A stretch of 64,000 nucleotides of DNA from Kiritimatiellia bacterium. GTDB taxonomy: Bacteria > Verrucomicrobiota > Kiritimatiellia > RFP12 > UBA1067. Shown one piece after another: positions 21,670 through 53,164 of the stretch. Location of the stretch: NCBI GenBank assembly GCA_045656225.1, contig JAZOQU010000040.1:4697-68696 (forward strand), read 5' to 3'. Numbering within the stretch: position 1 is the first letter of the stretch; every line of letters starts with the position of its first letter. The translations under genes and the position numbers were made by a program. The notes beneath the pieces were generated by a model. That model searched no databases, had not been told where the DNA came from, and saw only the letters and a program-made list of their open reading frames with translations.

Positions 21670-21946
21670 ACAATTTAATCTACAGACATGTTTATAAAGT
21701 GTAAAGTTATAAACCTTTATCTTCTTATATGAAAGTTATCAAAGCTATCTTAAAAAAGAATGACAGGTAATCAACACCGGAAAATAAAAAAAGTCCAATA
21801 AAATAAAGCTGAAAATAAGTTATCTACACTGTCTACAATTCTATTAATAATATATACACTCTTTAATTAATCATTATTATTTGATACAATTGATGACAAG
21901 TGAAAAATCGTGAAGTCAAACCTCCAAGATTCAGAAAGAAACAAAA
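21670..21946. promoter_or_regulatory. AT-rich dnaA-dnaN intergenic region; oriC/DUE candidate
   Basis: Degenerate boxes TTATCAAAG, TAATCACA-like TAATCAACA, TTATCTACA; very AT-rich run 21840-21900. Confidence 0.45.
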
Positions 21947-25055: not shown

Positions 25056-28000
25056 ATGCGAAATATACTGACCTTATTCTTTGTCGCTTTTGTATTTAAT
25101 ATTTCACTATTTGCGGAGACGGCATTTGAAGCGGTTGTTAAAGGCTTGGGCGAATTTACCGTTTCGCGCGCTGACGCGGAGAATGCCACTTATAAGATCC
25201 GTTATCCTAATGCTGGCCCTCACAAGGGCGGTGTTCAGGTTTATGAAGATAGGTACATATCGTATTCCGCGCGAATGAATTTAGTTAGGCGCGGCTTAAC
25301 GGATAAACTCCCTAAACGGACTTTATATAAGGATTGTTACGTTTGGATAACGGGTGATGGTATTGAGAAGAATGTTGAATATTCGCAACTTCCTTACTTT
25401 CATTCAGGTTACGGCCTTTATCCGTCTGATGATGTTCCTAAATTTATGAGTGAATGGCGCAAGAAGTATGCTACTGGTAAGGATCGCGCCTATACATTCC
25501 GTTTTCTCCCTGATCACGACGATAACCGTACTCTTGTTTTTATCGACGGATCTTTAGTTGGGAGTATCCCTGGCATCAATCCCGTTATAGATGTGCGTAG
25601 TACGAATATGACGATCGTAAAGAAGGGAACTATTGAAGTTCTCTCTCAGATCGGTATGTATTCTTTACCCGTTCTCGATCCTGCGCGTCCTCATCCTCTT
25701 CTTGCGAAAGGTGCTAAACTCTCAATCGGTTCGGGCGTTAAAAAGTTCGACAATATTTTAATCGACGTTTGGAAGCCTGAGAATTCTGTAGATCAGTCGA
25801 AGATTCGCCAGACGACTCCTCATCGTGATCTTGTGTGGGATCCGATCTTTGCGCGTACGCGTTATCAGACGGGTCCGGAATATATGCATTGGGTAGTTCC
25901 GTGTAAGAGCTGGCTTTATGCGTGGGTAGTCTGCGCTGACATTCCGATGGAAGGCCGTGAACCTATTCTCGGCGTTCAGCTCGCTAAGCTTGGTAGAGGA
26001 TGCAGCCAAGGTAATATCAATATTTCGAAAGATAGGCTCGATGAGGCGTCACCTAATAAAAAAGTGATTGGCGAACTAGAGTATGTGAATAAAGAAGGTA
26101 AGCTCGTTAAGACACCTCTCTATCTCGTTAGACTTACGCTTGATCCAACTAAGCTCGGATCTCGCTTCATGAATAAATTTTCGCTCGACTTTGATTTCGT
26201 AGGTGACGGCGGTAGAAAATGGAATAAGTTGACTTCTGTTCAGATTTTTGGCGCGACTCTCCAAGAAGCTCCATTCTCGTTTAAGATCGTCAATCCTGTG
26301 CGCGGCAATATTTTCGAGCAGGGTACGGATGAAAAGAAGTGTTCAGTAGAAATTGTCGCCGAGACCGACGATGTCGAGGGTACTTTCGAAATTGAAATTA
26401 CCGATCCATATTTTAAGACTCTTAAAAAGTGGTCGAAGAAATTTAATTTCGCTAAGAATGGCGAGAAGCTTAATATTCCGATTAATCTCACTGATTTTGG
26501 AGTCGGCTGGTACGCTATGTTCTATAAGTTTAAGGATGCCTCTGGTTATGTTCTCGCCCAGCATGAAGCGGCGTTTACTGTTCTCGCTCCTGACGACCGT
26601 GAAGCAGGTTACGAGTCGCCATACGCTGGTTGGCCGCTTTTGAACGGTTATCACGGCGCTAACCCGAATCCGATTGAGCAGCTAGATATTATGCGAAAGG
26701 CCGGCTATCGTAAAACATGGGGTCAGTCGCTCCACGTTAAGAGCGAAGAGGAAGGTAAGCCTTGGAAGATTACGATGAGCTCGATTTATCAGCAGCTTCC
26801 GTATAATTCAGGGCGCCCGACTAAAACTTATGATGAGCTCGTGAAAAAATTCGACCGTGGTGTAGAGAAAGCTCGTGAAGCGTTTGAGAAGTTCCCTCAT
26901 TGTAATGTCATTCAGCTTCTCCACGAACAGGGCGGCAGAGATCTCGCTTACGAAGTCGCTCGTGAAAGACCCGCGGTGCGCGGCGAATATCGTGGTTGGG
27001 ATTTTGATAATCCTGGTGATTACGATAAGAGCCAGGAGGTCAGAGCTCGCTGGGAAGTATTCTTCTGTACGGAATTCTGTAAGCGCATGCGAAAGGAATT
27101 TCCCGGTAAGCGCATTATGATCGGCAACGGCTCTTCGGCTTCCGAAAAAATCGCCGCGCTTATTAGTAACGGCTTTGATCTCTCTCTCGTCGATCAGCTT
27201 GGTATTGAATCGAAGGGCTTTCAGGCGATGCCTGAACTTAATGCCAATCGCGAGTCTCCAGGAATGCTCTGGGCTCTTCGCGAGACGGGGCGCGTTTTCG
27301 GTTATACGAACTTTACGCTCAACGCTTGCAACGAATTTGTATTTCGTCCTGAGCGCACCGTTCAGCGTACTTGGTCACGCGATAAGATCATGCAGGTTAC
27401 TGATTTCTCGGTACGCGATTATTTAATCTGCCTTATCTGGGGCTGCGATATCATTTCGACGGGGCACCTCGAAGACGCGAATGACGCGTACTACGACACC
27501 AACTGGGGTGCGGCTGGACAGTGTAAGTTCTATCCGTATTCATACCCGAAGAGAATGTATACGGCGCTTGCGGTTTTGACGCGCGTTCTCGACTGTCCCG
27601 AATTTTTGCGCATGGTTGATTCGGGCGAGAATTCATCATACATAGCGGAGTTTAGGCGCAACCGTAAAACGCCCGATTTCGCGTATGCGCTTTGGACGCC
27701 ACTTTTTGGCGCGACTGCTAAAGTTAAGTTCCCTGTCAGCGCTAAGATTAAGGTCTATGATATTTGGGGACGCGAGTCTACGCTAGCTGAGAATGGTGAA
27801 ATCGACATTGGCTCATCGCCATGCTACATCGTTTCTACTGAGAAGATGGAAGGCGCGAAAATTGTCCGTCACTTCCAGCAAGGGCTCGCGGGCCGCGAAT
27901 ACAAAAAGATATTTGATTGTACAATTGAGAATTCATTTGTTTCATCCGTTACGAATCCGCCTAAGCTAAGCCGCGCTTATGATTCTCCCGTGTATCTCGG

Positions 28001-28556
28001 TAAGTTCGATATATTTATGGAAAAAGATTCTGAGCTTGGCGATGTGCTCGTCGCTAAGCTCGATAAGACGTTCGTTGATTCTCGTTACGGTAATGTAAGC
28101 GGCGTTATCCCCGAAGTCGCCTGGGAATTCGGGGGTATCGAATTTAAGAAGTCAGTTCCGTACATTACATATAAGCCCAACACTCGTCTCGCCGTGAGAC
28201 TTTATGGTAACTCTTCATTCTCAAAACTCTCTGTTATGTTTGAAGACGAGAATGGTAAGATACATTGGAGCGCGTTCGACATATACCGCAGTTACCAGTG
28301 CTTCCACGGCTGGCATACAATTGAGGCCGACTTCCCGAAGGAGCTTCGTGAAGATGGGCGTAAGTTCAGAGTTAAGGCTGTTATGTTCGGCGCGGCGCGC
28401 AAGCAGATCAATCCGAAGGAAATGGTCGAGATTCACGACAACTTTAAGCTTAAGGACGTTTATGTCGTAACCGTTCCCGAAGAAGCGGTGCCGGCTTCCG
28501 ACGAGGCGAAGCATGCGGCCGCTATCATGAAGACGGTAGATGATAAGGATTTGTAA
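25056..28556 (+). CDS. Large secreted protein (1166 aa), unknown function
   Basis: Signal peptide MRNILTLFFVAFVFNISLFAE; long uninterrupted ORF; no motif I can name. Confidence 0.6.
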   Translation: MRNILTLFFVAFVFNISLFAETAFEAVVKGLGEFTVSRADAENATYKIRYPNAGPHKGGVQVYEDRYISYSARMNLVRRGLTDKLPKRTLYKDCYVWITGDGIEKNVEYSQLPYFHSGYGLYPSDDVPKFMSEWRKKYATGKDRAYTFRFLPDHDDNRTLVFIDGSLVGSIPGINPVIDVRSTNMTIVKKGTIEVLSQIGMYSLPVLDPARPHPLLAKGAKLSIGSGVKKFDNILIDVWKPENSVDQSKIRQTTPHRDLVWDPIFARTRYQTGPEYMHWVVPCKSWLYAWVVCADIPMEGREPILGVQLAKLGRGCSQGNINISKDRLDEASPNKKVIGELEYVNKEGKLVKTPLYLVRLTLDPTKLGSRFMNKFSLDFDFVGDGGRKWNKLTSVQIFGATLQEAPFSFKIVNPVRGNIFEQGTDEKKCSVEIVAETDDVEGTFEIEITDPYFKTLKKWSKKFNFAKNGEKLNIPINLTDFGVGWYAMFYKFKDASGYVLAQHEAAFTVLAPDDREAGYESPYAGWPLLNGYHGANPNPIEQLDIMRKAGYRKTWGQSLHVKSEEEGKPWKITMSSIYQQLPYNSGRPTKTYDELVKKFDRGVEKAREAFEKFPHCNVIQLLHEQGGRDLAYEVARERPAVRGEYRGWDFDNPGDYDKSQEVRARWEVFFCTEFCKRMRKEFPGKRIMIGNGSSASEKIAALISNGFDLSLVDQLGIESKGFQAMPELNANRESPGMLWALRETGRVFGYTNFTLNACNEFVFRPERTVQRTWSRDKIMQVTDFSVRDYLICLIWGCDIISTGHLEDANDAYYDTNWGAAGQCKFYPYSYPKRMYTALAVLTRVLDCPEFLRMVDSGENSSYIAEFRRNRKTPDFAYALWTPLFGATAKVKFPVSAKIKVYDIWGRESTLAENGEIDIGSSPCYIVSTEKMEGAKIVRHFQQGLAGREYKKIFDCTIENSFVSSVTNPPKLSRAYDSPVYLGKFDIFMEKDSELGDVLVAKLDKTFVDSRYGNVSGVIPEVAWEFGGIEFKKSVPYITYKPNTRLAVRLYGNSSFSKLSVMFEDENGKIHWSAFDIYRSYQCFHGWHTIEADFPKELREDGRKFRVKAVMFGAARKQINPKEMVEIHDNFKLKDVYVVTVPEEAVPASDEAKHAAAIMKTVDDKDL

Positions 28557-28858: not shown

Positions 28859-29169
28859 AGAGTGCTACGGTATATTATCGTGACATACCAGCTGGTACGA
28901 TAGTTAAGGATGATGAAGGCTATCTTTTTCGTTATGATCCGCTATATTTTGCGGATGCCGCGATGCCAGATATATCGGCTACTTTACCTAAAACGCAACG
29001 TGAGTATCGTTCGAAGGTGTTATTCCCGTTCTTCTTCGGGCTTCTAGCCGAGGGCGCACAAAAAGAGCGTCAGTGCCGCGAACTACACATTGATGAGAAT
29101 GATCATTTTACACGTCTTGTTGAGACGAGCGCATTTGGTGCGATAGGAGCGGTATATGTTAAAGCTTGA
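28855..29169 (+). CDS. hipS: HipS-like protein (stand-alone HipA N-terminal subdomain)
   Basis: 104 aa; VYYRDIPAGTIVKDDEGYLFRYD...LFPFFFGLLAEG resembles the HipA N-terminal (couple_hipA) region; positioned between hipB and the kinase. Confidence 0.7.
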   Translation: MKSATVYYRDIPAGTIVKDDEGYLFRYDPLYFADAAMPDISATLPKTQREYRSKVLFPFFFGLLAEGAQKERQCRELHIDENDHFTRLVETSAFGAIGAVYVKA

Positions 29170-30046
29170 TTTTTCGGTCTCAGATTTAAATCTTCAAGTA
29201 AATAGGGATAAGACGCGTCGTGCGTCTATATCTGGTGTGCAGGATAAGGTGCAGCTAAAGCGCGTTCGCGGCGGATTTACCGTTGTTGAGTCGAATGGTG
29301 ATTATATCTTAAAGCCAGTACCTCGTAATACTTATGCGCAGCTCGCAAGTGATATTCCTGCCAATGAGGCACTGACAATGGATATTGCTGAGAAGGTGTT
29401 TCGAATTAAAACGGCAGAGCATGATCTCGTTGAAATGAAGGATGGTGAATACGCTTATCTTACACGGCGTTTCGATAGACGCGGCAACGAACTTGTTCAG
29501 CAAGAAGATTTTTGTCAGCTGTCGGAGCGCACGATAGAGACTCATGGCGAAAATTATAAGTATGACTCCAGTTATGAAGAGCTAGCTGGGCTTATGCGCA
29601 AGTTTTGTCCAGCAGCTGTTGTAGAGAATCCGAAGGTGTTTTTTCTAATTCTCTTCAATTATGTATTCGCCAATGGTGACGCGCACCTTAAGAATTTTTC
29701 ACTTTATCGAAGCGAGCATGGCGATTATATTCTTACTCCTGCATACGATTTATTGAATACGGCTGTGCATTTTCCTAATGAACCGACAGCAACGGGGTTA
29801 GACTTCTTCGCCGATGGGCATTTTACGCAATCATACGAGAAGCTTGGGTTTTATTCATCGATAGACTTTATTGAACTTGGCGCGGCATTTGGAGTTTTAA
29901 AAGAGGAGGTAAGTGAAATGATTTCGCTTTTTTCTGCTCGCAAGGATAATGTCGAGTCAATGATTGCGGCATCATATCTTTCTGAAGAAGCTAAGTCGCG
30001 GTATTTCTCGAAGTTTGCCGACCGGTTGAGAGCTATCGCGCAGTAA
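29156..30046 (+). CDS. hipT: HipT-like Ser/Thr kinase toxin (HipA core lacking the N-terminal subdomain)
   Basis: Gly-rich loop RASISGVQDKVQL (SIS motif), catalytic GDAHLKNFSL, TPAYDLLNT; 14-nt overlap with hipS. Confidence 0.75.
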   Translation: MLKLDFSVSDLNLQVNRDKTRRASISGVQDKVQLKRVRGGFTVVESNGDYILKPVPRNTYAQLASDIPANEALTMDIAEKVFRIKTAEHDLVEMKDGEYAYLTRRFDRRGNELVQQEDFCQLSERTIETHGENYKYDSSYEELAGLMRKFCPAAVVENPKVFFLILFNYVFANGDAHLKNFSLYRSEHGDYILTPAYDLLNTAVHFPNEPTATGLDFFADGHFTQSYEKLGFYSSIDFIELGAAFGVLKEEVSEMISLFSARKDNVESMIAASYLSEEAKSRYFSKFADRLRAIAQ

Positions 30047-32032: not shown

Positions 32033-32383
32033 ATGAGCATGAATTTAAATATTGAATCTTCAATACATTTGATAAGTCCAACGGATGTATTATCTACATT
32101 GCGCGAATGGGTAAAGCTTTCTCGTCAGCGTTTGGGGCTTACTCAAGAAGAGTTGTCGAAGAAATCTAATGTTCCAGCGACGACTATTTCGCGCTTGGAG
32201 CGTACTGGGCTAGCTTCAACTGATTCCTTAAGTCGCGTTCTTTTTGCGCTTGATCAATTAGATTCGTTTCATGAATTTCTCAAGGCGCGGTTACGTTTCG
32301 CGTCTTTCCCAAAAACTCTTGAAGATGAAGTTTCTAATAAGAAAATATTGCGCGTACGGCATAAAAGAGGGAACGAAAAATGA
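32033..32383 (+). CDS. hipB: XRE-family HTH protein, HipB-like
   Basis: LREWVKLSRQRLGLTQEELSKKSNVPATTISRLERTG; 4-nt overlap with hipA. Confidence 0.75.
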   Translation: MSMNLNIESSIHLISPTDVLSTLREWVKLSRQRLGLTQEELSKKSNVPATTISRLERTGLASTDSLSRVLFALDQLDSFHEFLKARLRFASFPKTLEDEVSNKKILRVRHKRGNEK

Positions 32384-33522
32384 AATTGAATGTATCATTC
32401 AGATTCTCGCCCGATCGTGTTATTCGCGTTGGAACTTTATATCAAAACGGTAGAGATTCGGCATTTGAATATGCCCAGCCCTTTTTTGCGGAAAAACTTA
32501 ATCCCGCGCCGTTTCGTCTACCTGTAAAAGAGGGTGTAAATATTTTCGATTGGTCTGGTGGTATGGAGACATTCGGCATGTTTGAAGATTCATTGCCGGA
32601 TGGTTGGGGTAGGCGGCTTGTTGATGTGATGTTTAGAAAAAGGAATGGGCGGCTACCTACTGTGTTAGAACGGCTATCTTGTGTTGGAAGCTCAGGGATG
32701 GGAGCTTTAGTATATGAACCTGAAGATAGCCCGGTTCAGCAGTATACTGAATTTGATTTAGCGGCTATTGCATCTGATGCTATGAACTTCGAATCTGGTC
32801 TTGCGGAGGATGTCCTGCCGCAAGTGCGACGAGCGGGCGGTAGTTCCGGCGGCGCAAGACCAAAAGCATTTATTGGCTATAATCCGAATACAGGCGAGGT
32901 TTGTGCCGAATCGGAGACTCTGCCAGATGGATTTGAGCATTGGCTCGTCAAGTTTTATACGAAGCGTGACGGTGATTGCGCCGGCGAGCTTGAGTATCGC
33001 TATTATAAGGCGGCGTTGGCTGCGGGAGTAGATATGTCGCCATGCCGATTATTAGAGACCTCTGCTGGAAAGTTTTTTGCAACAAAGCGATTTGATAGAA
33101 CGGACAATGGCGGGCGTTTGCATTTAGCTTCAATCGCTGGTTTATTGTATGCAAATTTTAGGATACCTGGTGATGAATATGAGATAATATTTAAGTTGAC
33201 GGATGCATTGACTCATGATTATTCGGCCAAGAAGGAACTTTTTAGGCGCGTTGCATTGAATGTTTTTGCTCACAATAGGGATGATCATCTAAAAAATTTC
33301 GGATTTTTAATGGATGCAAATGGTGTTTGGAAACTCGCGCCATTTTACGATTTTACTTATGCTGAAGGGCCGAACGGATGGCATACACTTTCAATTGCTG
33401 GAGAAGGGGCGAATCCGAGAGAGGATGATCTGCTAAGGTTAGCTGATAGTGTTGATCTATCGGTGAAAGACGCAAAAGAAGTCATAGAGATAACGAAAGA
33501 GGTTTCTCCCCATTGGCAATAA
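32380..33522 (+). CDS. hipA: HipA-family Ser/Thr kinase toxin (full length)
   Basis: N-terminal couple domain (FEDSLPDGWGRRL), P-loop-like GGSSGGARPKAF, catalytic NRDDHLKNFGF, APFYDF. Confidence 0.85.
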   Translation: MKLNVSFRFSPDRVIRVGTLYQNGRDSAFEYAQPFFAEKLNPAPFRLPVKEGVNIFDWSGGMETFGMFEDSLPDGWGRRLVDVMFRKRNGRLPTVLERLSCVGSSGMGALVYEPEDSPVQQYTEFDLAAIASDAMNFESGLAEDVLPQVRRAGGSSGGARPKAFIGYNPNTGEVCAESETLPDGFEHWLVKFYTKRDGDCAGELEYRYYKAALAAGVDMSPCRLLETSAGKFFATKRFDRTDNGGRLHLASIAGLLYANFRIPGDEYEIIFKLTDALTHDYSAKKELFRRVALNVFAHNRDDHLKNFGFLMDANGVWKLAPFYDFTYAEGPNGWHTLSIAGEGANPREDDLLRLADSVDLSVKDAKEVIEITKEVSPHWQ

Positions 33523-34855: not shown

Positions 34856-35221
34856 AGTAATTAAATATTATGAAGTTAACTTACTCACAGTATATCAAAG
34901 TCACTGAAAGCGTACAACGCACCTTTTACGGCAACAAACTGCGTCGCGAGAAAGAGAAGAACTTCAATTTGACGGTGGGTTTTAATTATGGTATTATTGA
35001 GGTGTTGTCATTAGCCTAAAAGGGTCACATTAGGAGAATGAAGCGAAGGTTCACTTGCAATATTATTATTGTTTCTACGCGTATTTAGCGCGTAGCGTGT
35101 TACCTTTGTTTTGTTGGTTTTTAGTGCGTACCTTTTTCGCGGTGAATTTAACAGGCACTCGCTGTTTAGGGGATAAAATCTTAAGCGGCAGGTGCAAAAC
35201 CAAAAAAAAAAGGGCACAATA

Positions 35222-38189: not shown

Positions 38190-38534
38190 TTATATTTTAA
38201 GCTGTTTTGCGATTGTTGTATTAAATTCATCGCGCACTTCAGCTTGGGTCGCAAAATTGGACCATTGATGTACAGCGTCTTTAACTTCATCTAGAATGGC
38301 TCTCGCCTTGCGCTCGCGTATATTCGCGAAGCTCGCGGCAGCGATTATGTCTTCGTCTGTTATGCCGATTCGCTTTCCGTTTACTGACATTTGATGCTGG
38401 CTCGTCCAATCTCCTTCGGGGTTGTAGGCATAGCATTCATCATAAGCTGGAGCGAGGCTCCATTTGCCATTACGATCCATTAGGTATGCAATGTTCTTTA
38501 CGTGATCATCACAGTTCCAACATGAGTTCCCCAT
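38190..38534 (-). pseudogene. Truncated hipA (C-terminal third only)
   Basis: NCDDHVKNIAYLMDRNGKWSLAPAYDECYA aligns with the catalytic loop and C-terminus of HipA 32380-33522. The P-loop and N-terminal roughly 270 aa are missing; only 44 nt separate it from the HTH gene. Confidence 0.6.
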
Positions 38535-39179: not shown

Positions 39180-39431
39180 GGTATAATGTAGAGGACGCAA
39201 AGGTGGTCGTAAAGGACCTTCAGTTAATACGACTGCGGTATCTTTCAAAATACTCATATAAATGTGTGAAAGCAAAATGTCGGCAGAGTTGGCGATTTGC
39301 AATTGACTTTGAGCGGGGTTAGATGATAATGAGCCATTAGAACGTGAAGTTGAAGGAGTTTTGATTCTTCAGTGGAGAGTTTTTATTGATCGACTTTGGG
39401 CGGGTGAATTATTTTAATTGAACATTTTCAC

Positions 39432-39460
39432 TTGTAATATTTTACGGAAAAGCATATACT
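39432..39460 (+). promoter_or_regulatory. Candidate sigma70 promoter of P2 (-35 TTGTAA, 17 bp, -10 TATACT)
   Basis: Positionally homologous to the stronger P3 promoter. Confidence 0.45.
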
Positions 39461-39548
39461 TCAAATTACAAGATGAGGATTGGGTCGCTAGTTATGCATA
39501 AGAATTGCGATTTAACCGCGTTTAACGACTGCGGATGTAATTCTTATA

Positions 39549-39561
39549 CCCCCCCCCCCCC
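39549..39561 (+). repeat. Poly-C tract, 13 nt, in the P2 leader
   Basis: Counted directly; the homologous position upstream of P3 has C10. Confidence 0.95.
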
Positions 39562-39695
39562 GCAGCTCTAAGAAACTTAATACGCGCCAATTCTGGCGCG
39601 ATAATTCCACTAAAATTTCAAACGATATGTCACTATGGAGATTCTCTCTATAGTGCGCTTTCGTTTATTTAAAAACCTAAGAAAGAAGGTCACAA

Positions 39696-42605
39696 ATGAA
39701 ACAAAAATTAATAAGTAAATTAAAGCGAGTAGCGCTCGCGCTTTTCGCCGCGCTTTGCGTCGGCAGCGTGTGGGGAGCCGAAATCTACACAGGAGGCGAT
39801 CCGATCTGTACATTTGATGTTCAGACAAAGAAGCTATATTTTAAACGTGGATTTACACCGTTTGAAAAAGGAACATATTGCATTTATTGTACTTACTCAT
39901 ATAATAATCAATCGGGTGAACAAATTTCAGGGGAAGGGCGAGCGCAAATAACAGCTACCAAAACTTATTGGAATGATGATAACTATTGGCCGAGTCTTAC
40001 CAAGGAGTTTGTATTGTCAGATTTTCCTGTCGGTGGAGTTTTAACGGCGTCAGTAGCGTTTCAGAAGCAAAATGGTAGTGAATGGGTAAATTGCGAAGAA
40101 TATGGCGATAGCCCCATTGTATTAAATTATTCGTTTGATACGGGTGGCGTCCTTTCTTCGGACTGTATCTGGCAAGTAACGCCAGAGAAAAAGTTTATCA
40201 TTTCGGGTCAGACTTCTGGTGGAAATATAAAGTCGGTTAGAGTGAGATATGTCGTTGGAAATTCAGAATATGCGGAATTGTCGAATGAAGCACAGTCGGT
40301 TGATGCAGAATACGACCCAACAACAGGAGCGTACAGAGCAGAAATTCCGTTTACGGAAAACGGGATCTTTTTATCATATAGTGTTTTTGCCGTATATGGT
40401 GATGCGACTGAAAAAATATACACTGATGCTCAAAGTTCAGACAATGTTTTTAGTACACAATATAAAGAAAAAGCATCTTGCACTTATACATGGCGGGGAG
40501 AAGGAGAAGATGATATATGGACAAATTTTGCGAATTGGAATATGGAGGGATTAGGTTTTGGTTACCCTGGATTAAATTACGACAATATAACTGGCGAATA
40601 TGTTGCTGGTACAGACGGTGCAAGAAGTACTGTTCGCTTTGTTGGGAATGCGGAAATAGATCTTGAAGGGAAAGCATATGAGTTTTATGAGCAGAATGAT
40701 AGTACTTCTGCCCAAAATACGCCGTATCGCGGGCTTACTTTTGAGAAGCCCGATGAACTTGATAAAATGTTTGTTGTTCTTAAAAACGGTACAATTGGAA
40801 CTAAAGTACCTGCTGATAGATATGGGCCGCTTCTTCTTGGCGCGGCAGGTGTGGAGTTGGAATTCCGCAACGCTGAGTTTAAGATAAGAACCGCTAGTAA
40901 TTATCTTCGTCTTAACAAAGACGCTACGATTGTATTTTCCGGCGATGAAGGTCGGTCTAAGAATCAAGCGTGGTATTTCGCGCCGAAGAGCGATATGACG
41001 AATAGCCGTTTAGTATTTCGCAACTTCATTGGTTATACGTATTATAGCGCGGCTAATACATCAATTGCTTCTGGTTCAGTCGTTGAGATTACAAATTCGG
41101 TCTGGAAAGTTAGAACTGGAACGTCGGCTGATTCTTCCGCAAGTAACGGCTTTGCCGAGAGGGTGGTTTTCCGTGATGGTGATGATCGCCAAGCTCAGTT
41201 GAAGTGTGTTGCGTATTATAAGGTTGGAAATACGACTGATGATCAATGGGCTAATATCAATCTCAATAATACATACGATATTAAGATTCCTGCCGCAGGT
41301 CATGAAGACGCAAGTATTTTCGCAAAGAACTTAACTGCGGGTCCCACGGGTACTTTCGAGATTGATGTAACTGATTATGTGACGGGAGAAAGGGTGCCTG
41401 TTGTGGAATTAATGGGTACACCTGCGTATACGACACTTCCAAAGCTTGTGGCCAAAGCGAACGGTGCTGATGTTACTGATGCCCGCAACGCCAAGCTGGT
41501 GTGGGACGGCAACTTTATGTATTATCAGCAGGATTCGCAGAACGCAGCTTCGATCGGTGCTACTGAGTACGCGACGCTCGGCGAGGCGGTTGAGAAGGCG
41601 GCTGACGGCGCTGCGATTAAAGTTCTTAACAATTGCACCGCTGATACAGCTTGCGTAATCGCTAACAAGACGCTTACTATCGACTTGAACGGTAAGACGG
41701 TTAAGGCGAATGATACTGACGCGGCGACCGATGGCAATGGCGTATTCTGGGTTCAGGCTGGCGGCGTACTTACGCTTGAGGATTCGAGCGAGGATAAGAG
41801 CGGTACTGTAGACGGTAATGGCGGCAATGGCTATAAGATGGCCATTTGGGCTGATGGTGGTAAGGTTGTAATTAATGCCGGTAATTACGTCAATGATAAT
41901 GATGGTACTCATAATCAGTACGATCTTATCTACGCTAAGAACGGTGGCGAGATTGTAATTAATGGTGGTACCTTTAAGTGCGATACTCCCCGTTGGACGC
42001 TCAACAGTCACAATACGAAGCCGGGTACGTTCGTAGTTACGGGTGGTAAGTTCTATCAGTATAATCCTACTGACTTCGATACCGACGAAGCCGTTACGAC
42101 TTGGTGCGATGCTAAGTATCGTGCTGAGGCTGATGGTGATTGGTATATCATTAAGGAGGGCTACACTGTTACTGAGGAATCGGCTGCTACTGTTACCGCT
42201 GATACCGAGGCTGAAGCTTTGGCGCAGGTCGACTTTAGTGTTACTACCCCTGATGGCGTAGACGCTACCGCTTATAAGAACTACTTTAAGCTTGTTGCGA
42301 CTGAGACCGCCGAGGGTTCCAAGACTTGGACAGTTGCTCTCGCTCTTAAGGACGAGCTTAAGCCTGTAATCGCTGAGACGACCAATGATGATGGTACGGT
42401 TACTCCCGCTCTCACCTTTGAGGATGGTAAGGTTACGGTCAACATCGAGAACGAGCTCCCTGGTCTTTACTATGGCGTTCGTTATGCTACGACAGTTGAG
42501 GCGGTAGATGCCGCGGAGATTGTTCCTGGCTTTACGGTTACGCCCGCTGAAGGCGATACGGCCGGCTTCTTCAAGGTCGTTGTCGACTTTAAAGAAATTA
42601 AGTAA
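39696..42605 (+). CDS. Paralogous secreted surface protein P2 (969 aa)
   Basis: Signal peptide LKRVALALFAALCVGSVWGA. N-terminal and central regions collinear with P3; C-terminal ~150 aa collinear with P1. Confidence 0.85.
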   Translation: MKQKLISKLKRVALALFAALCVGSVWGAEIYTGGDPICTFDVQTKKLYFKRGFTPFEKGTYCIYCTYSYNNQSGEQISGEGRAQITATKTYWNDDNYWPSLTKEFVLSDFPVGGVLTASVAFQKQNGSEWVNCEEYGDSPIVLNYSFDTGGVLSSDCIWQVTPEKKFIISGQTSGGNIKSVRVRYVVGNSEYAELSNEAQSVDAEYDPTTGAYRAEIPFTENGIFLSYSVFAVYGDATEKIYTDAQSSDNVFSTQYKEKASCTYTWRGEGEDDIWTNFANWNMEGLGFGYPGLNYDNITGEYVAGTDGARSTVRFVGNAEIDLEGKAYEFYEQNDSTSAQNTPYRGLTFEKPDELDKMFVVLKNGTIGTKVPADRYGPLLLGAAGVELEFRNAEFKIRTASNYLRLNKDATIVFSGDEGRSKNQAWYFAPKSDMTNSRLVFRNFIGYTYYSAANTSIASGSVVEITNSVWKVRTGTSADSSASNGFAERVVFRDGDDRQAQLKCVAYYKVGNTTDDQWANINLNNTYDIKIPAAGHEDASIFAKNLTAGPTGTFEIDVTDYVTGERVPVVELMGTPAYTTLPKLVAKANGADVTDARNAKLVWDGNFMYYQQDSQNAASIGATEYATLGEAVEKAADGAAIKVLNNCTADTACVIANKTLTIDLNGKTVKANDTDAATDGNGVFWVQAGGVLTLEDSSEDKSGTVDGNGGNGYKMAIWADGGKVVINAGNYVNDNDGTHNQYDLIYAKNGGEIVINGGTFKCDTPRWTLNSHNTKPGTFVVTGGKFYQYNPTDFDTDEAVTTWCDAKYRAEADGDWYIIKEGYTVTEESAATVTADTEAEALAQVDFSVTTPDGVDATAYKNYFKLVATETAEGSKTWTVALALKDELKPVIAETTNDDGTVTPALTFEDGKVTVNIENELPGLYYGVRYATTVEAVDAAEIVPGFTVTPAEGDTAGFFKVVVDFKEIK

Positions 42606-43042: not shown

Positions 43043-44353
43043 ATGGAGGTTGTTATGCAGGTTAAAAGAGATGTGTTTTTAAATAGGCTTATTGCGCGTA
43101 AAGAGAATGGGATGGTTAAGATTATAACCGGTCTTAGGCGATGCGGTAAATCATATCTTTTAAGTGTTCTTTATAAAAATTACCTTCTTTCACAAAATGT
43201 GGCTGACGATCATATAATCGAGATAGCTTTGGATGAAGCTGAAAACTATAAATATCATAATCCGTTGAAGTTAGACTCTTTTATAAAAGAAAAGATAAAG
43301 GATAATGATACATATTATGTCTTTATTGATGAGATACAATATGTAAAAAAGATAAAAGTTAAAGATGAGCAGCTTGATGAGGCCGAAGAGATAACATTTT
43401 ATTCAGTTTTAAATTCCTTAATGCGTCGGTATAATATCGACTTATATGTGACAGGGTCGAATTCAAAAATGCTTTCCAATGATATCAGGACGGAATTTCG
43501 CGGGCGAGGTGATGAAGTTCATATTACACCTTTTACATTCTCGGAGTTTATGCAAGTATATGATGGTGATGTTCGGGATGGATGGGAAGAATATTTGGTT
43601 TATGGAGGTTTACCCTTGGCTGTTATGGCTTTGGATCACGAATCTAAGAGTAGATATCTTAAAAATCTTTTTGAAGAGACATATCTTAAGGATGTTGTAG
43701 AGCGCAATAAAATTCGTAAACCAGAAAGTCTTTCTGAGGTTCTTGATGTTTTGGCTTCAAGTATCGGGTCATTGACAAATCCATTAAAGATAGAAAATAC
43801 ATTTAAAACAGTTCGACATACGATATTGAAGTCTAAAACAATTTCTTCATATATTGCTAAATTAAAAGACTCATTTTTAATAGATGAGGCGCGAAGATAT
43901 AATATAAAAGGGCGAAAATATATATCCGCGCAGACAAAATTTTATTTTTCGGATGTTGGTCTTCGCAATGCACGGTTAGGTTTTCGCCAGTTGGAAGAAA
44001 CCCATATTATGGAGAATATTATTTATAATGAACTGAAGGTTCAAGGATTTGATGTAGATGTTGGTATCGTAGAAAAGCACGAGAAGAATGAAGAAAAGCA
44101 TGGATGTAAAAGACAATTGGAAATTGATTTCGTAGCGAACCGTGGTAATAAAAGGTTTTATATTCAGTCAGCTTTATCAATTGATGACTTAGAAAAAGCT
44201 CAGCAAGAAAAAAGGTCTTTGAGTAATATAGATGATTCTTTTAGAAAGTTGATAATTGTTGGTGGGAAAAAGCCGGCATATATTGACGAAAGTGGATATG
44301 TAATTGTAGGAGTTATAAATTTTTTACTGAATTCGAACGAATATTTGATATAA
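43043..44353 (+). CDS. AAA+ ATPase of the COG1373 / DUF4143 type
   Basis: Walker A GLRRCGKSYL, Walker B YYVFIDEIQY, typical ~430-aa length. Confidence 0.75.
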   Translation: MEVVMQVKRDVFLNRLIARKENGMVKIITGLRRCGKSYLLSVLYKNYLLSQNVADDHIIEIALDEAENYKYHNPLKLDSFIKEKIKDNDTYYVFIDEIQYVKKIKVKDEQLDEAEEITFYSVLNSLMRRYNIDLYVTGSNSKMLSNDIRTEFRGRGDEVHITPFTFSEFMQVYDGDVRDGWEEYLVYGGLPLAVMALDHESKSRYLKNLFEETYLKDVVERNKIRKPESLSEVLDVLASSIGSLTNPLKIENTFKTVRHTILKSKTISSYIAKLKDSFLIDEARRYNIKGRKYISAQTKFYFSDVGLRNARLGFRQLEETHIMENIIYNELKVQGFDVDVGIVEKHEKNEEKHGCKRQLEIDFVANRGNKRFYIQSALSIDDLEKAQQEKRSLSNIDDSFRKLIIVGGKKPAYIDESGYVIVGVINFLLNSNEYLI

Positions 44354-44412
44354 GATTAATTAGCGTTTCGCTTACTTTGTGACGTGTACGATCTTACCCC
44401 CCTCGTTTCTCC

Positions 44413-44441
44413 TTGCAGAATTTTATCAAAAAGCGTATAAT
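44413..44441 (+). promoter_or_regulatory. Near-consensus sigma70 promoter of P3 (-35 TTGCAG, 17 bp, -10 TATAAT)
   Basis: Spacing counted directly; about 230 nt upstream of the P3 ATG. Confidence 0.55.
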
Positions 44442-44529
44442 AGAAATATACTGATGAAGGGGATTATGACAGATACGCTTGAGAATTGCGTTTTAACCGC
44501 GGCTGACGGCTGCGGACGTGATTCTTGTA

Positions 44530-44539
44530 CCCCCCCCCC
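44530..44539 (+). repeat. Poly-C tract, 10 nt, in the P3 leader
   Basis: Counted directly; homologous to C13 at 39549-39561. Confidence 0.95.
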
Positions 44540-44673
44540 AGTCCTCTAAGAATACAAGATAACGCTGTTTTAAGAGCGTTAATCTCATTAGATTTCAAAC
44601 CCAAGTCCATTATGGGGATATGCTCCATAGTGGGCTTTCGTTTATTCATAAATAACCTAAAAAGAGGAGTAAT

Positions 44674-47600
44674 ATGAAAGAAACAAAAAAACTCAAGTGC
44701 TTCAGTAAATTGAAGCGAGTAGCGCTTACATTGTTCGCCGCGCTTTGCGTCGGATCAGTGTGGGCGGCGAATCCAACCGTATACCTAGAGGCAAGTTGTT
44801 CTTTGTCAGCTCAAGGCGTAATATCAGTAAATGATTCATTTGCATATTTTGGAAAAACAAGTGCTCGCACCTTTACGACTAAGGTGTCATATAAAATTAA
44901 TGATGGGGAGATAGTAACTGTATCGCTTAATACGACAGACTCACTTACGCCATCATCCACAAGTTCGTCCGCAGCTATCTGGAGAGGTGGCGAATATACT
45001 ACCAATGTAGAAGGCTTTGTTCCTGGCGATGTAGTTTGGGTTAAATATGAATTGGAGTATAGTGGAGAGGTAGGAGGCAAAACGAGCCAGTCTAAGGAAT
45101 ACACTTTTGATACGAATGGTGTTGTTGAAAGTGCTGGCAGTTGGGCGTTTTCTCCGAATAGGTTTTTAGTAAAAGGTAGTGTGCCTCTTGGCAAGGGTAT
45201 TGAGTCTGTTAAAATTCGCTATGCTATGAATTCAGATTTATTTTCTAATGAAGAGGCTACAACAGATACGTTATTAGCGACAGAATCGGCTCAGGAAAAT
45301 ACTAAGAGTGTTGACGCAGAAGGAAAGTTTGTTTTTGAGATTCCTTTCGTTGCAGAGCATAGTACATTAGTTTGGAGTTTGTGGGCGGTATTTAATGATG
45401 GAACTGAGAAGTTATATGTTAATGCTGCTGAAGAGACATCGTTGTTAAAAATGGAGCGTAAGGAAGAAGCGTATGTTAAATATACGTGGAATGGCGAAGG
45501 AGGCAATAACTCTTGGGATAATCCTTTAAATTGGACTATGGAAGGCTTGGGTTGGGGCTTGCCTGGCCTTGTTGTTAATAATACTGATGGTGTGTATGTT
45601 GCTGAGACCGATGGTGCAAGAAGTACGGTTTGCTTCGCAGGTAACGCTGAGATAGATCTTGGTGGTAAAACATATGAGTTTTATGAGCAAGATGATAAGG
45701 GTATAAAATATGTTCCCTATCGTGGTTTGGAGTTTGAGAAGCCAGCTGATATGGAAAGAATGGAAGTTGTCTTAAAGAACGGAACTCTTGGAACTAAAGT
45801 TCCTGGTGATTCCAATGGTGAACTTCTCTTGGGTGCCGAAGGAGTAAGCCTGGAGTTTTCGAATGCGACTTTCGCTATTAGGGGTGCTAAACAACTTATC
45901 GTTCCTAATGCAGGAGCAACTATTGTATTCTCAGGGATTAAGAATCATTCGTGGTATTATGCCCCTAGGGCGAGTTATAGTAAGAATTCACAAGTTGTGT
46001 TCAGGGACTTTTCTGGCTTAGCGTATTACGATACTAGTTTAGGAGTAGCGGATGGTTCAGTACTCGAAATTGCGAACTCGCTTATTAAGTTTAGAGTTGG
46101 TACTAAGAATACTCACACAGCTAGTAAAGGTTTTGCTAAGCGAGTCATTTTCCGAGATGGACCAGATAGACAGGCTATTATGAGAGTTTGTTATTACGCA
46201 TCAGGCGATGACTCGTATGCTAATATTAATCTTAACAATACATACGATATTAAGATTCCTGCTGAGGGGCATGAAAATGCGAGTATTCAGGCTCGAAATT
46301 TAACAGAGAATCCGACGGCGACTTTTGAGATTGAAGTAACGGATTATCTTAAGAGTGATCGAGTTCCTCTCATTAACTTAAGCCAAACTCCCACGTATAA
46401 AACGTTGCCCACTTTGGTTGCTAAGGCTAATGGCGAGGATGTAACTCAAGTTCGTAATGCGCGTCTTTTCTGGGATGGAAAAGTTCTTTATTATCAGCAA
46501 AATAACCAGCATGTTGCTTCAATCGGCAGTGTTGAGTATGCTACGCTCGCCGATGCGTTCGCCGCGGCTGAGGCTGGCGCTACGGTTAAGCTCCTCAACG
46601 ATGCAACGCTCGCTGAAAAGATCACTGTTAAGAAGGCTGTAACGCTCGATCTTAATGGTTGCACGCTTAGCGAGACTGTCACTGACAGCTATGGTGCAAT
46701 TTATATCGGAACGGCCGGTAATCTCACCATTACCGATTCTGCTACGGGCGGTAAGATCGCGACGGATGGTGGCATCGTTATTGGTAACTATGGTACTGTT
46801 ACCGTTGCGGGCGGCACGATTGAAGCTGGCGCGGTAGCTGAGGAAGACACCTCTGTCTATAACTTCTACTATAACGGCTCGACTTACGGTAAGTTGACTG
46901 TTAATGGTGGTAAGGTTGGTCGTATTTGGAACTGCGGTAATGCGAATATCACAGCTGGCGAAGTTGTCGATATCGACAATAGCGGCGCTATGACGATCGC
47001 TGAGGCTGCGACTGTTTCTGGTACTGTTATCATTAAGAATGGTTCTGACGCGGCTGATGTTCCCGGCGCTGGTACGCTCACTGCTCCTGAGAGCCTCACG
47101 GTTCAGGTCGGTAACGATGGTGCTGAGGCATTCTACGTTGATGGTAAGTGGTTGGTCCAGGTCGTTGTCGCTACTATCGGTGAAGCTAAGTTCGCTTCGC
47201 TTGATGCTGCTATCGCGGCGGCTGGTGCTGAAGATGAAGTTGTTGTTGTAGCTGATATCGCTACGGATGCCGCATTTGAGATTACTAAGAAGGTTGCCAT
47301 CAACTTGAACGGTAAGACGATCGCGACGACTCAGGCCGATACAGAAGGTAACGGTGTATTCTGGGTTAAGGCCGGTGGTGAGTTCACGCTTAACGGTGAG
47401 GGTACGGTCAATGGTGTTGGCGGTAACGCTTATAATATCGCTATCTGGGCTGATGGCGGTAAGGTTATCATCAACGGCGGCACTTATACGAACGAGGGTG
47501 CTCAGGATGACGGTCCTGACGGCGCTCACTTCGACCTTATCTATGTTAAGAACGGCGGCGCTGTTGAAATCAACGGAGGTACGTTCAAGTGCCAGACGCC

Positions 47601-48438: not shown

Positions 48439-48744
48439 TTGCAAATTATGTGTATGCTTGACGATATACGAGCGAGGCGCGATGAGATATACGCTGTCGC
48501 AAGAGCGCACAAAGCCGAAAAACTTTGGGTGTTCGGTTCGTGTGCACGTAAAGAGGAAACGCCTGAAAGTGATATCGATTTTCTGGTGGAATTTGTTCCC
48601 GCGACAACAATATTCGATTATGTAAAACTTAAGGACTCACTTTCGCTAATTTTGGGACGAAATGTGGATATTGTGGATTCGTTTGTGTTGGAACGGGGAG
48701 ATAGATTTTCTGAAGAAGTTGCAAAGGATAGGGTTGCTGTATGA
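48439..48744 (+). CDS. MNT-type nucleotidyltransferase antitoxin (MntA-like)
   Basis: GSCARKEETPESDIDFLV (GS...DxD motif); extended -10 TGGTATAAT at 48410-48418. Confidence 0.8.
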   Translation: MQIMCMLDDIRARRDEIYAVARAHKAEKLWVFGSCARKEETPESDIDFLVEFVPATTIFDYVKLKDSLSLILGRNVDIVDSFVLERGDRFSEEVAKDRVAV

Positions 48745-49082
48745 TGCGTGATGCTCAGAGAATCGATCATATGCTTGGATTTGTCAGACGTTGTCTGGAA
48801 ATCCTTGACGGTGTAGATGAAGAAATGTACCTATCTTCATTGGATAAACAGGAGCAGGTCGAATTAAATATGCTGCATCTTGGTGAGGCTGCCGCCCGTA
48901 TTTCAGATGAGGTTAAAGAATTGCACCCAGATTTACCATGGAATGAAATGGTAGGAATGAGAAATGTTCTGACGCATGAATATTTTCGTGTAAAACCGAT
49001 TGTATTATACGAAACCGTAAGATCGGAATTTGTGACAATGGAAAAGAAGTTTGAAGAATTACAAGGGGAGTATCCGTTGTAA
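48741..49082 (+). CDS. HepT-like HEPN (DUF86) toxin
   Basis: RNVLTHEY (Rx4H HEPN motif); ATGA overlap with the MNT gene. Confidence 0.8.
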   Translation: MMRDAQRIDHMLGFVRRCLEILDGVDEEMYLSSLDKQEQVELNMLHLGEAAARISDEVKELHPDLPWNEMVGMRNVLTHEYFRVKPIVLYETVRSEFVTMEKKFEELQGEYPL

Positions 49083-50984: not shown

Positions 50985-51461
50985 GTGACAAATCTACATC
51001 CAGATATTTGCAGAAAAATTAAAGATGCTCGCAGAGAACGCGGCATCTCTCAGAGCCTGCTTGCTAAAGAAGTAGGTTGTAAACAATCTGCACTGTCGAT
51101 GTTTGAACAGGGTGACGGTACTAAGCTTAATGATGAAGTTATTAAAAAGCTTTGCGATAAGTTCGGTATTAAGTTATCTACAGAGAACGCAGCGGTAGAA
51201 ATTCCGGTTGTTCCTGCCCCTCAAAGAGTTTTTGAAGTTGAGAAGGGTTTTTGCCCTAATCCCAATTGTCCTTCTCATACAGCCTACGAGGTTGACGGGC
51301 GAAGATTCTTAAAGCCCGACCGCCGCATTCAGGATCCTGTCGGCGGCAAATTCTGCGCGATATGCGGTGAAGTCCTTGAGAAGCGTTGCCCTAATTGCGG
51401 CTCACTTGTTCATGACGGTGCCGTCTGTTCCATTTGCGGCGAGAGTTACGTCGCCATATAA
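50985..51461 (+). CDS. XRE-family HTH regulator with C-terminal zinc-ribbon domain (GTG start)
   Basis: IKDARRERGISQSLLAKEVGCKQSALSMFEQG; CPNPNCPSH...CAICG...CPNCG...CSICG. Confidence 0.7.
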   Translation: MTNLHPDICRKIKDARRERGISQSLLAKEVGCKQSALSMFEQGDGTKLNDEVIKKLCDKFGIKLSTENAAVEIPVVPAPQRVFEVEKGFCPNPNCPSHTAYEVDGRRFLKPDRRIQDPVGGKFCAICGEVLEKRCPNCGSLVHDGAVCSICGESYVAI

Positions 51462-51517
51462 ACGGCGGGGATATCTCAGACGAACGGGACGACAGCAAAT
51501 ATGGTATAATACCATAT

Positions 51518-51790
51518 ATGAAAAAAGCGATTATAACAGTTGTCGGTAAAGACGTCGTCGGCATCATCGCCAAGACGAGCGCCTATCTCGCCAAGAACAA
51601 CATCAATATTCTTGATATCTCCCAGACGGTTGTTCAGGAATATTTCAATATGATGATGATTGTCGACATCACGTCCTGCCGCAAGAGTTTTGAGGACGTT
51701 GCGGCCGGTTTGGGTGAACTCGGCCAGGCGATGGGACTTAAGATCCGCTGCCAGAAGTCCGAGATTTTCGAGAAAATGCACCGCGTATAA
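51518..51790 (+). CDS. ACT-domain protein (UPF0237 family)
   Basis: MKKAIITVVGKDVVGIIAKTSAYLAKNNINILDISQTV; extended -10 TGGTATAAT at 51502-51510; conserved pairing with UPF0210. Confidence 0.8.
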   Translation: MKKAIITVVGKDVVGIIAKTSAYLAKNNINILDISQTVVQEYFNMMMIVDITSCRKSFEDVAAGLGELGQAMGLKIRCQKSEIFEKMHRV

Positions 51791-51799
51791 GGGGGCGAG

Positions 51800-53164
51800 A
51801 TGATTAACATCACCGAAGTTCTCGAGACGAACAAAATGATTCTCGAGGAGAATCTCGATGTCCGTACGATCACGATGGGCATTTCGCTTCTCGACTGCGC
51901 GGACGCGTCGCTCAAGACGACGTGCGACAACATCTACGCGAAACTCACGACGTACGCGAAGGACCTCGTGAAGACGGGCGACGAAATCGGACGAGAGTTC
52001 GGCGTTCCCGTGGTCAACAAGCGAATTTCGATCACGCCTGCGGCCATCGTCGGTTCGGCATGCTGCAGGAAGCCTTCCGATTTCGTAAAAATCGCGAAGA
52101 CTCTCGACCGCGCGGCCAAGAAGGTCGGCGTCAACTTCATCGGCGGATATTCCGCGATCGTCTCGAAGGGTATGACCAAGGCCGATGAGCTTTTAATCCG
52201 ATCCATTCCCGAGGCTATGGCCGTGACGGAGCGGATCTGCTCTTCGGTCAATGTCGGCTCCACCAAGACGGGCATTAATATGGACGCCGTCCGTCTTATG
52301 GGCGAGATCATAAAGGCGGCCGCCGAGCGCACGAAGGATCGCGATTCCATCGGATGCGCGAAGATAGTCGTTCTTTGCAACGCCCCGGACGACAATCCGT
52401 TTATGGCAGGCGCGTTCCACGGCGTGAGCGAAGCCGACGCGATCATCAATGTCGGCGTATCGGGGCCCGGCGTAGTCAATCACGTTTTAAAGTCGATTCG
52501 CGGAGCCGATTTCGAGACTCTCTGCGAGACGATTAAAAAGACGGCGTTCAAGATTACGCGCGTAGGTCAACTCGTCGCCCAGGAGGCGTCGGCGCGTCTC
52601 GGCGTTCCGTTCGGCATTATCGATCTTTCGCTCGCGCCGACTCCCGCGATCGGTGACTCGGTAGCCGATATTCTCAAGGAGATCGGTCTTGAGCATCCGG
52701 GCGCACCCGGCACGACGGCGGCGCTCGCGCTTTTGAACGATCAGGTTAAAAAGGGCGGCGTGATGGCTTCGAGTTATGTCGGCGGTCTTTCAGGCGCGTT
52801 TATCCCCGTATCTGAGGATCAGGGCATGATCGATGCAGTGAACGCCGGCGCTCTTACGATCGAGAAGCTTGAGGCGATGACGTGCGTCTGCTCCGTGGGT
52901 CTCGATATGATCGCGATTCCGGGCGATACTCCCGCTACATCGATTTCGGGAATTATCGCCGACGAGGCGGCTATCGGCATGATCAACCAGAAGACGACGG
53001 CCGTAAGAATTATTCCTGTCGCCGGCAAGACGGTTGGCGATACGGTTGAGTTCGGCGGACTTCTCGGGTATGCGCCCGTGATGAAGGTGTCCAAGTTCTC
53101 TTGCGCCGATATGATCGCTCGAAAGGGCCGTATTCCCGCTCCGATCCATTCGTTCAAAAACTGA
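51800..53164 (+). CDS. UPF0210 (DUF711) family protein
   Basis: [72 protein letters not shown]: near-collinear with the family as I recall it. Confidence 0.9.

Follow-up and report, generated by a model that had tools for sequence, protein, structure and literature searches.

A hypervariable poly-C tract in the conserved leader of a secreted-protein gene family from ruminant-gut Kiritimatiellae: a candidate slipped-strand switch

In a 64,000-nucleotide (nt) stretch of DNA from a Kiritimatiellia bacterium (contig JAZOQU010000040.1 of assembly GCA_045656225.1, positions 4,697 to 68,696; hereafter the window), two genes for large secreted proteins, designated P2 and P3, are each preceded by a copy of the same promoter-plus-leader cassette, in which a long run of cytosines (the poly-C tract) stands between RNA hairpins. 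This cassette is the shared promoter and ~230-nt 5' leader of a paralogous family of large secreted-protein genes, and the family itself, the RNA structure, the hypervariability of the tract, its position relative to the promoter and a pattern of stop codons resembling that of an open reading frame (ORF) were all observed directly. We consider it highly probable that the tract acts as a repeat-based switch in a transcribed leader. The fuller statement, that it is a slipped-strand contingency switch read out as the frame of a leader ORF, is the one we favour, and we rate it a little short of an even chance. Its mechanistic form, in which the tract sets the frame of a phase-variable leader ORF and so determines attenuation or translational coupling, in a cassette reused throughout the family, is put forward a shade more tentatively.

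Window positions 39380-39720 and 44360-44700 aligned at ~80% identity with long invariant blocks and represent two copies of the cassette, one at 39432-39695 (P2) and one at 44413-44673 (P3); all cassette coordinates are window positions on the + strand. An earlier sequence-only reading of this DNA had called the two segments homologous, and every element that it had listed in them was recovered in place. Conserved leader motifs were scanned in public genomes and metagenomes, and contigs encoding P2 homologues were also fetched; in all, 23 homologous full copies and several truncated ones were gathered from related genomes and metagenomes; the metagenome scan with the leader motifs returned only 4 loci. 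Their sources were a handful of Kiritimatiellae genomes assembled from metagenomes of yak and sheep hindgut, or else related gut metagenomes; contigs L055-L072 derive from yak and sheep gut samples (ENA analyses ERZ27297620-663, ERZ28633492-693, ERZ27316771-7004 and ERZ28593666-4298). A scan of 185,579 species genomes for C10-N5-TCTAAGAA found no copy outside the same few Kiritimatiellae metagenome-assembled genomes (MAGs). The full copies all belong to a narrow clade of Kiritimatiellae from ruminant guts. Searches for exact matches to P0035 and to neighbouring genes in the window returned nothing.

Each copy lay directly 5' of a gene for a large secreted protein of 345-2124 amino acids (aa). 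In the window these encode a 969-aa protein (P2, 39696-42605) and a 1163-aa protein (P3, 44674-48165), with the P2 Shine-Dalgarno (SD) sequence GAAGG at 39685-39689 and its start codon within the start region 39685-39698, and with the P3 SD sequence GAGGAG at 44664-44669 and its ATG at 44674-44676. The product of a further gene, P1 (35222-38083), is a third paralogue, and P1, P2 and P3 start with near-identical signal peptides; three signal-peptide types occurred across the secreted-protein family, some members of which carry a Gly_rich_2 domain. Comparison of P2 and P3 with Pfam, NCBIfam and PDB sequences yielded no relatives, and no function was assigned. Leaders were 80-95% identical, whereas the proteins downstream were only ~30-50% identical to each other, and leader modules were mosaic between copies. 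Because the leaders are far more alike than the proteins, the cassette is kept uniform either by strong constraint or by recombination, as happens in other variable surface protein families. One family member (L054, minus strand, about 3560-3900) had the same promoter and upstream ATG joined directly to the hairpin 3 region, without hairpin 1 and without the poly-C module. Since this gene uses the same promoter in the absence of the module, it is the upstream promoter that drives the gene, and the poly-C module represents an addition within the leader. In another contig (L053, 1-205) only the 3' third of the leader was kept, behind unrelated sequence.

The tract is C13 in the P2 leader (39549-39561) and C10 in the P3 leader (44530-44539), in both cases after hairpin 1, as the sequence-only reading had it. 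No other run of nine or more C occurs in the 64-kb window, and as many matches were obtained in 0/100 shuffles. Across copies the tract measured 10-19 nt (10-18 between paralogues) and was never shorter than 10, which, like the C13 and C10 of the window, is long enough to slip (about 8 nt or more). To follow length at single loci, we compared contigs of different sample origin whose encoded protein was identical. At the P0029 locus the tracts were 11, 11, 11, 11, 10 and 12, and two of these contigs (L067 and L071) aligned over 3730 nt with 0 mismatches, their sole difference being one C. At the P0013 locus three tracts measured 18, 15 and 15, and those at contig ends were at least 16 to 19 long. 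Over 5910 nt, two contigs (L055 and L056) showed 1 mismatch and two indels; each indel fell in a poly-C tract, one of these tracts being that of the leader of the next gene. The poly-C tract was the only indel site in near-identical contigs; as a control, 10 contigs from overlapping samples showed no difference across 330 nt of the poly-C-free P1-type leader. Values of 15-19 are soft, but the 10/11/12 series is hard to dismiss as error. The length variability supposed in the sequence-only reading was thus borne out among paralogues and between near-identical genomes, and at the P0029 locus the length was not fixed between populations.

The flanks of the tract (UUCUURUA and CUCUAAGAA) were invariant, and the tract itself was predicted to be mostly unpaired (probability unpaired 0.25-0.9). 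Several irregular copies were also seen. In L011, at about 900-925, CCTCCCTA precedes C14, as if point mutations had broken a longer run, and L037 has T+C10; single interruptions were present only in these two. In L096 (about 1760-1780) a flanking A and GC were lost (TTAT-C12-AGCTC). Half of the P0013 contigs (5/10) broke in or beside the tract, where contigs L057-L064, L066 and L072 start, and some contig ends at the tract contained obvious errors (L058).

Each copy opens with a sigma70-type promoter, at 39432-39460 for P2 (TTGTAA at 39432-39437, a 17-nt spacer and TATACT at 39455-39460) and at 44413-44441 for P3 (TTGCAG at 44413-44418, a 17-nt spacer and TATAAT at 44436-44441). These hexamers and spacers, already noted from the two window sequences, proved to be part of a TTGCnn-17-TATA[CA]T pattern conserved in 18/19 copies with enough upstream sequence. 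Pairwise identity dropped to background (0.25-0.28) ~15 nt upstream of the -35 hexamer; as identity is lost just 5' of this element, the homology of the family begins at the promoter. Transcription would start a few nt after the conserved promoter, and it is from the promoter that we infer the start site. The tract lies ~83 nt downstream of the promoter, between hairpins 1 and 2, and, judged from the predicted start, would fall within the transcribed leader, ~83 nt from the 5' end of the RNA. A C6 run (44397-44402) was also present ~10 nt upstream of the -35 hexamer of the P3-type promoter, with C12 at the homologous position in L093 (15161-15172), and this may be another length-variable tract, in promoter-upstream DNA.

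All three hairpins were recovered by RNAalifold on 17 copies. Hairpin 1 of P2 (39498-39547) is two-tiered, with an outer stem AAGAAUUGCG/UGUAAUUCUU, whose closing pairs are AAGAAU/AUUCUU, and an inner stem CCGCG/UGCGG; its P3 counterpart (44481-44526) also folds, and the AGAAT/ATTCT closure and CCGC/GCGG core described earlier are present in both. Hairpin 2 is CGCGCCA-AUUC-UGGCGCG in P2 (39583-39600) and has the stem UAACGCU/AGCGUUA in P3 (44560-44581); the sequence-only reading had placed it 21-22 nt after the tract, which holds for P2 (21 nt) but not for P3 (20 nt). Hairpin 3 of P2 (39631-39655) is an 11-bp, terminator-like stem with a U-rich tail, extended by an outer helix AACGA:UCGUU, and that of P3 (44603-44637) has 15 pairs, is likewise terminator-like and carries the tail UCGUUUAUUC. 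With its U-rich tail, hairpin 3 was flagged as terminator-like on the + strand in both window copies. It is accompanied by an invariant block GCTTTCGTTTATT (39657-39669 in P2; 44634-44646 in P3, where the 3' end of the leader runs from 44634 to the ATG and ends at 44677), so that the hairpin and the conserved segment from GCTTTCGTTTATT to the ribosome-binding site are found in both copies, as had been reported.

That the leader is a conserved structured RNA, as the same reading had proposed from two copies, was upheld in the wider family: on the RNAalifold structure, standard pairs occupied 97.7% of helix cells, compared with 38-50% when partners were slid by 1-3 columns. Five pairs were altered on both sides, a number reached by 0/500 shuffles. 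Most helix variation was one-sided and of the wobble type (U-A to U-G, G-C to G-U), with some compensatory changes in hairpin 1. In hairpins 1-3 there were 76 G-U cells and 3 A-C cells, and the helices were 97% paired as + strand RNA but 84% on the other strand; the predominance of G-U over A-C indicates constraint on the folded sense RNA, and on the same ratio (76 to 3) we rejected a DNA cruciform or an antisense RNA. Every copy also formed the hairpins when folded alone, at -13 to -27 kcal/mol for hairpin 1, -6.5 to -13 kcal/mol for hairpin 2 and -13 to -22 kcal/mol for hairpin 3. The claim that the stems of hairpin 2 differ in the window copies yet still pair extends to the family, in which at least six different stem sequences all paired.

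No Rfam (15) covariance model matched the whole window at its gathering score, and in E-value mode the two leaders gave only chance-level matches (E about 3), in keeping with the earlier statement that no described leader of this layout was known to the reader. A hammerhead-like CUGAUGA near the 5' end was rejected, as other copies have AAGAUGA, AUAAUGA or CUAUGA there and there was no Rfam match. RNAalifold also proposed a long-range helix, GAUGAGG:UUUCGUU, of 7 bp with four G-U pairs and one-sided changes only, which is unproven and competes with the outer helix of hairpin 3. GAUGAGG (39472-39478) is invariant and contains an upstream AUG, and its partner UUUCGUU (39660-39666) lies in the invariant 3' motif, which in P2-like copies can also pair with AAAUGAAA at the main start. 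Pairing of the 3' motif with GAUGAGG or AAAUGAAA may constitute an anti-start element or may be coincidence. Sequestration of the main SD sequence or AUG was discarded as inconsistent between copies (probability that the AUG is unpaired, 0.01-0.78).

The feature that led us to favour a leader ORF is the upstream ATG, which, like the reading frame through the tract, an invariant UAA and the terminator-like character of hairpin 3, did not figure in the sequence-only reading. It was located 12 nt after the -10 hexamer in every copy, including the module-free L054 (13 nt in two copies), and its distance to the tract was exactly 76 nt in all copies, with no indels despite 40-50% diversity in codons 2-9. 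Before the tract, 20 copies contained 20 distinct stop triplets at 12 sites, of which 0 were in the ATG frame. Between the tract and the invariant motif there were 33 distinct stop contexts: 23 at offset 1, 9 at offset 2 and 1 at offset 0, the last being in L053, which has a 2-nt deletion. This pattern held despite a 1-nt indel that shifts the P3-like relative to the P2-like subfamily. By our own calculation, with homologous sites counted once, p was about 0.01 for the pre-tract pattern and about 0.007 for the post-tract pattern (with frame choice allowed for), or near 1e-3 combined.

The three frames downstream of the tract end in different places. The open one ends between the invariant GCTTTCGTTTAT block and the SD sequence, 17-31 nt before the main ATG; in P2, GCTTTCGTTTATT is followed directly by this stop (39657-39672, with TAA at 39670-39672), 26 nt before the main ATG. 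The exceptions are the P3 copy of the window and L052, in which the long-frame stop is a TGA overlapping the main ATG as ATGA (TGA at 44675-44677 in P3). A second frame meets the invariant TAA of CTCTAAGAA (39566-39574 in P2) 7 nt past the tract, and the third in most cases ends at a TAG located in the 3' arm of hairpin 3. With the tracts as sequenced, the candidate upstream ORF (uORF) has 59-71 codons in 17/23 and 31-35 codons in 6/23. Both window copies, with C13 and C10, are in the short state: the candidate leader ORF of P2 (39473-39571) runs from the AUG at 39473-39475 through C13 to the UAA at 39569-39571 (32 codons), and that of P3 (44454-44549) from the AUG at 44454-44456 through C10 to the UAA at 44547-44549 (31 codons). 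Two side cases were noted: the upstream ORF of L054 has 25 codons and ends at the TAG in hairpin 3, and in L096 this TAG is changed to TGG, which removes the stop of one frame.

We propose that the tract would behave as a hypermutable simple-sequence repeat whose length would drift through slipped-strand mispairing, so that every family gene would switch state independently, as a contingency locus. The invariant AUG 12 nt after the -10 hexamer would open a leader ORF that runs through hairpin 1 and reads the tract as poly-proline. For a tract of n cytosines, n mod 3 = 2 would carry the ribosome across hairpins 2 and 3 and the invariant GCUUUCGUUUAU motif to a stop 17-31 nt before the main start, or overlapping it as AUGA. 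Where n mod 3 = 1, as in both window copies, the invariant UAA 7 nt beyond the tract would end translation, and where n mod 3 = 0 it would end no later than a UAG within hairpin 3. A ribosome in the long frame would block formation of hairpin 3 or keep Rho off the C-rich RNA, and ribosomes would be brought next to the main SD sequence, favouring expression. After an early stop, ~125 nt of structured leader would be left untranslated, and premature termination or poor initiation would be favoured. By analogy with polarity and with uORF-controlled attenuators, we infer the long frame to be the ON state. Precedents exist for uORF-controlled Rho termination and for stochastic switches that operate through termination in the leader (PMC12360218).

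Several observations weigh against a frame-reading leader ORF. The upstream AUG has no SD sequence, although the main genes have clear ones, and it is only ~4-6 nt from the predicted 5' end of the RNA. Selection at the peptide level was absent: synonymous and non-synonymous changes numbered 8 and 34 in the long frame, and the third codon position was the least variable in the leader frame. Given this lack of amino-acid-level selection, the leader ORF, if it matters, would do so via translation itself and not via its peptide. The frame relative to the conserved 3' motif differed between the P2-like and P3-like subfamilies, and no n mod 3 class was enriched (the 20 loci divided about 9/6/5). As a terminator, hairpin 3 is only moderate, with an AU-rich stem and an interrupted U-tract partly paired with the upstream AACGA, and no alternative antiterminator pairing was found in the leader. 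In addition, the tract lengths were read from metagenome assemblies built on short reads, in which long homopolymers are prone to miscounting.

Some of these points would be accommodated if the tract acted at the RNA level only, without leader translation, for example by loading Rho (a longer tract giving more premature termination), as a spacer or pairing partner that alters folds, or as the target of a G-rich small RNA (sRNA). The tract is situated in the leader and is predicted to be mostly unpaired, its lengths are always at least 10 and range widely (10-19), as would fit a graded effect rather than a frame effect, and the missing SD sequence and even distribution of n mod 3 classes point the same way, as do the precedents of RepG/tlpB (PMC8295292) and the hmw 5' untranslated region (UTR) repeat hairpin (PMC12721329). 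In most copies a G-rich stretch just after the 5' AUG was also predicted to pair with the tract, by 0.2-6 expected bp; however, this G-run is absent from the L004/L055/L095 type and its pairing with the tract showed no covariation, nor did the pentanucleotide after the tract covary with the 5' end, and we did not accept a G-run:poly-C helix as a defining feature, as it is absent from the L004 type. No partner sRNA is known, no sRNA search having been made. An RNA-level role does not account for an AUG that is invariant and fixed in its distance, for the absence of pre-tract indels and of stops in the AUG frame, or for the single open frame after the tract; we consider it unlikely, though a serious rival. 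As a candidate Rho utilisation (rut) site, which the sequence-only reading had offered as one of its two explanations, the tract is C-rich and largely unpaired but short and flanked by hairpins; this function is possible and is compatible with the leader-ORF proposal. If, on the other hand, the frame were conserved for its product, the tract would sit in a genuine phase-variable gene for a small protein of about 65-70 aa with poly-proline, co-transcribed with the large gene. The open frame of 59-71 codons in 17/23 copies and its stop-free pattern would suit such a gene. The substitution counts given above, the conserved third codon position, the missing SD sequence, a C-terminal third read in different frames in the two subfamilies and conservation that tracks RNA hairpins instead of codons do not, and a functional small protein was rejected for want of codon-type selection; we regard it as highly improbable.

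The variability of the tract could also have no regulatory role at all, if a slippery homopolymer were hitch-hiking in a gene-converted leader and its length were neutral or assembly noise. Mosaic leader modules do indicate recombination among paralogues, the data all derive from short-read metagenome assemblies, and the three frame classes are similarly frequent. Long homopolymers mutate fast, yet 0 of ~25 copies had a tract decayed to fewer than 10, only two contained even a single interruption (L011 and L037), and the immediate flanks were invariant; this absence of decay and the invariant flanks make neutral hitch-hiking less likely. Sequencing error is an improbable source of the 10/11/12 series, seen in 3.7-kb contigs with no other difference, and the existence of L054 shows that the module is not obligatory baggage. 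We judge a neutral tract to be quite improbable. The other explanation in the sequence-only reading, a switch of the Bordetella fim type in which a second promoter (TTCTTA ... TAAGAA) straddles the tract, did not survive the comparison. Poly-C promoter spacers are a known mechanism and the sequences flanking the tract are invariant, but tracts of 10-19 would produce spacers of 19-28 bp, which for almost all copies exceeds the spacing at which promoters work; the final T that is conserved in -10 hexamers is missing from TAAGAA, and a consensus scan revealed no conserved promoter at this position. A well-conserved promoter is instead present 83 nt upstream, at the 5' edge of homology, and is used by L054, which has no tract; hairpin 1, upstream of the tract, evolves by G-U wobble and is thus transcribed on the + strand. 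For these reasons of spacing, hexamer quality and a conserved promoter further upstream, we rejected a promoter straddling the tract and give it very little credence.

P1, the third paralogue in the window, has a different conserved leader (34990-35221) without poly-C, homologues of which were found in L073-L082 (1170-1500) and L093 (9680-10000). In the window it contains A10 (35202-35211) directly before the SD sequence, and this run is interrupted in the homologues (AAAAACAAAAG, AAAGATAAAAG). The secreted-protein genes are located in a strain-variable island (window 29156-51461, cf. L093 8952-22274) flanked by a conserved gene for a 1166-aa protein (25056-28556) and by DZR/ACT/DUF711 genes (50985-53164), a few kb from mnmG-dnaA-dnaN (18225-23041). 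The island also carries toxin-antitoxin-like genes, namely three HipA-like ORFs (29156-30046, 32380-33522 and 38190-38534), helix-turn-helix (HTH) proteins, MNT/HepT (48439-49082) and an AAA_14/DUF4143 ATPase (43043-44353). In L093, a related genome, a different gene set lies between the same flanks.

A few pathogens have been studied closely for repeat-based phase variation, which is almost unexplored in uncultured gut commensals. As far as we found, it is undescribed in Kiritimatiellota, the literature having yielded no report of phase variation in Kiritimatiellae. The cassette is a sequence-defined candidate for within-population diversification of a large secreted or surface protein family. 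If the leader-ORF reading is true, it would join slipped-strand switches to uORF-controlled attenuation, and expression would depend on tract length with a period of 3; we found no description of this combination, nor of any switch in which a repeat inside a regulatory uORF sets the outcome. Since assemblies break at the tract, the secreted-protein family is likely to be fragmented and under-counted in MAGs.

The closest known cases are those in which the repeat is in the 5' UTR (uspA1, tlpB and hmw1A), outside the promoter-spacer class. In Moraxella catarrhalis, uspA1 has a poly(G) tract in the 5' UTR of an adhesin gene. In Helicobacter pylori, the G-repeat of tlpB is targeted by the sRNA RepG (PMC8295292). 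Both resemble the leader proposed here in that a homopolymer of variable length follows the promoter within the mRNA leader of a gene for a surface or secreted protein, and in that expression is, or here would be, set after transcription initiation. Unlike these, the present cassette has poly-C flanked by three conserved hairpins and within a conserved open frame, is common to a whole paralogous family and has no known sRNA partner. The heptanucleotide repeat in the 5' UTR of Haemophilus influenzae hmw1A forms part of a hairpin processed by RNase III (PMC12721329), and is similar in that it is transcribed in the structured 5' UTR of a large adhesin gene and that RNA structure is part of the switch. 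However, the hmw repeats make up one strand of a long hairpin, opposite a G-rich arm, whereas the tract described here is predicted to be mostly single-stranded between hairpins.

Poly-C tracts are found in the promoter spacers of Bordetella pertussis fim2/fim3 and Neisseria opc. They share with the present tract a similar length and, as proposed here, slipped-strand variation and control of a surface protein, but their position in the spacer, as opposed to ~83 nt downstream of the promoter, places the tract studied here outside that class. Stochastic leader switching is also known from cwpV of C. difficile, and mgtL/mgtP provides a uORF with proline codons. A review of Rho-dependent regulation covers the uORF attenuators tnaC, speFL and cruR and the stochastic leader switches of E. 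coli fim and C. difficile flgB, that is, metabolite-sensing uORFs and invertible-DNA switches, and includes no case of a repeat in a uORF (PMC12360218). The attenuators resemble the proposed mechanism in that translation of a leader ORF decides whether transcription or translation enters the main gene, and the stochastic switches in that a heritable random switch is placed between promoter and gene. The uORF attenuators known so far respond to a metabolite, and the known stochastic leader switches operate by DNA inversion, whereas the input proposed here would be a frame set by a repeat. At the level of the family, the vlp genes of Mycoplasma hyorhinis encode paralogous variable surface proteins with a conserved 5' region and a homopolymer of their own in each gene. 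They parallel the present family in their conserved promoter, leader and signal peptide and in the independent switching that is proposed here for each gene; the vlp poly(A), however, is in the promoter spacer, without the structured leader or uORF of the cassette described here.

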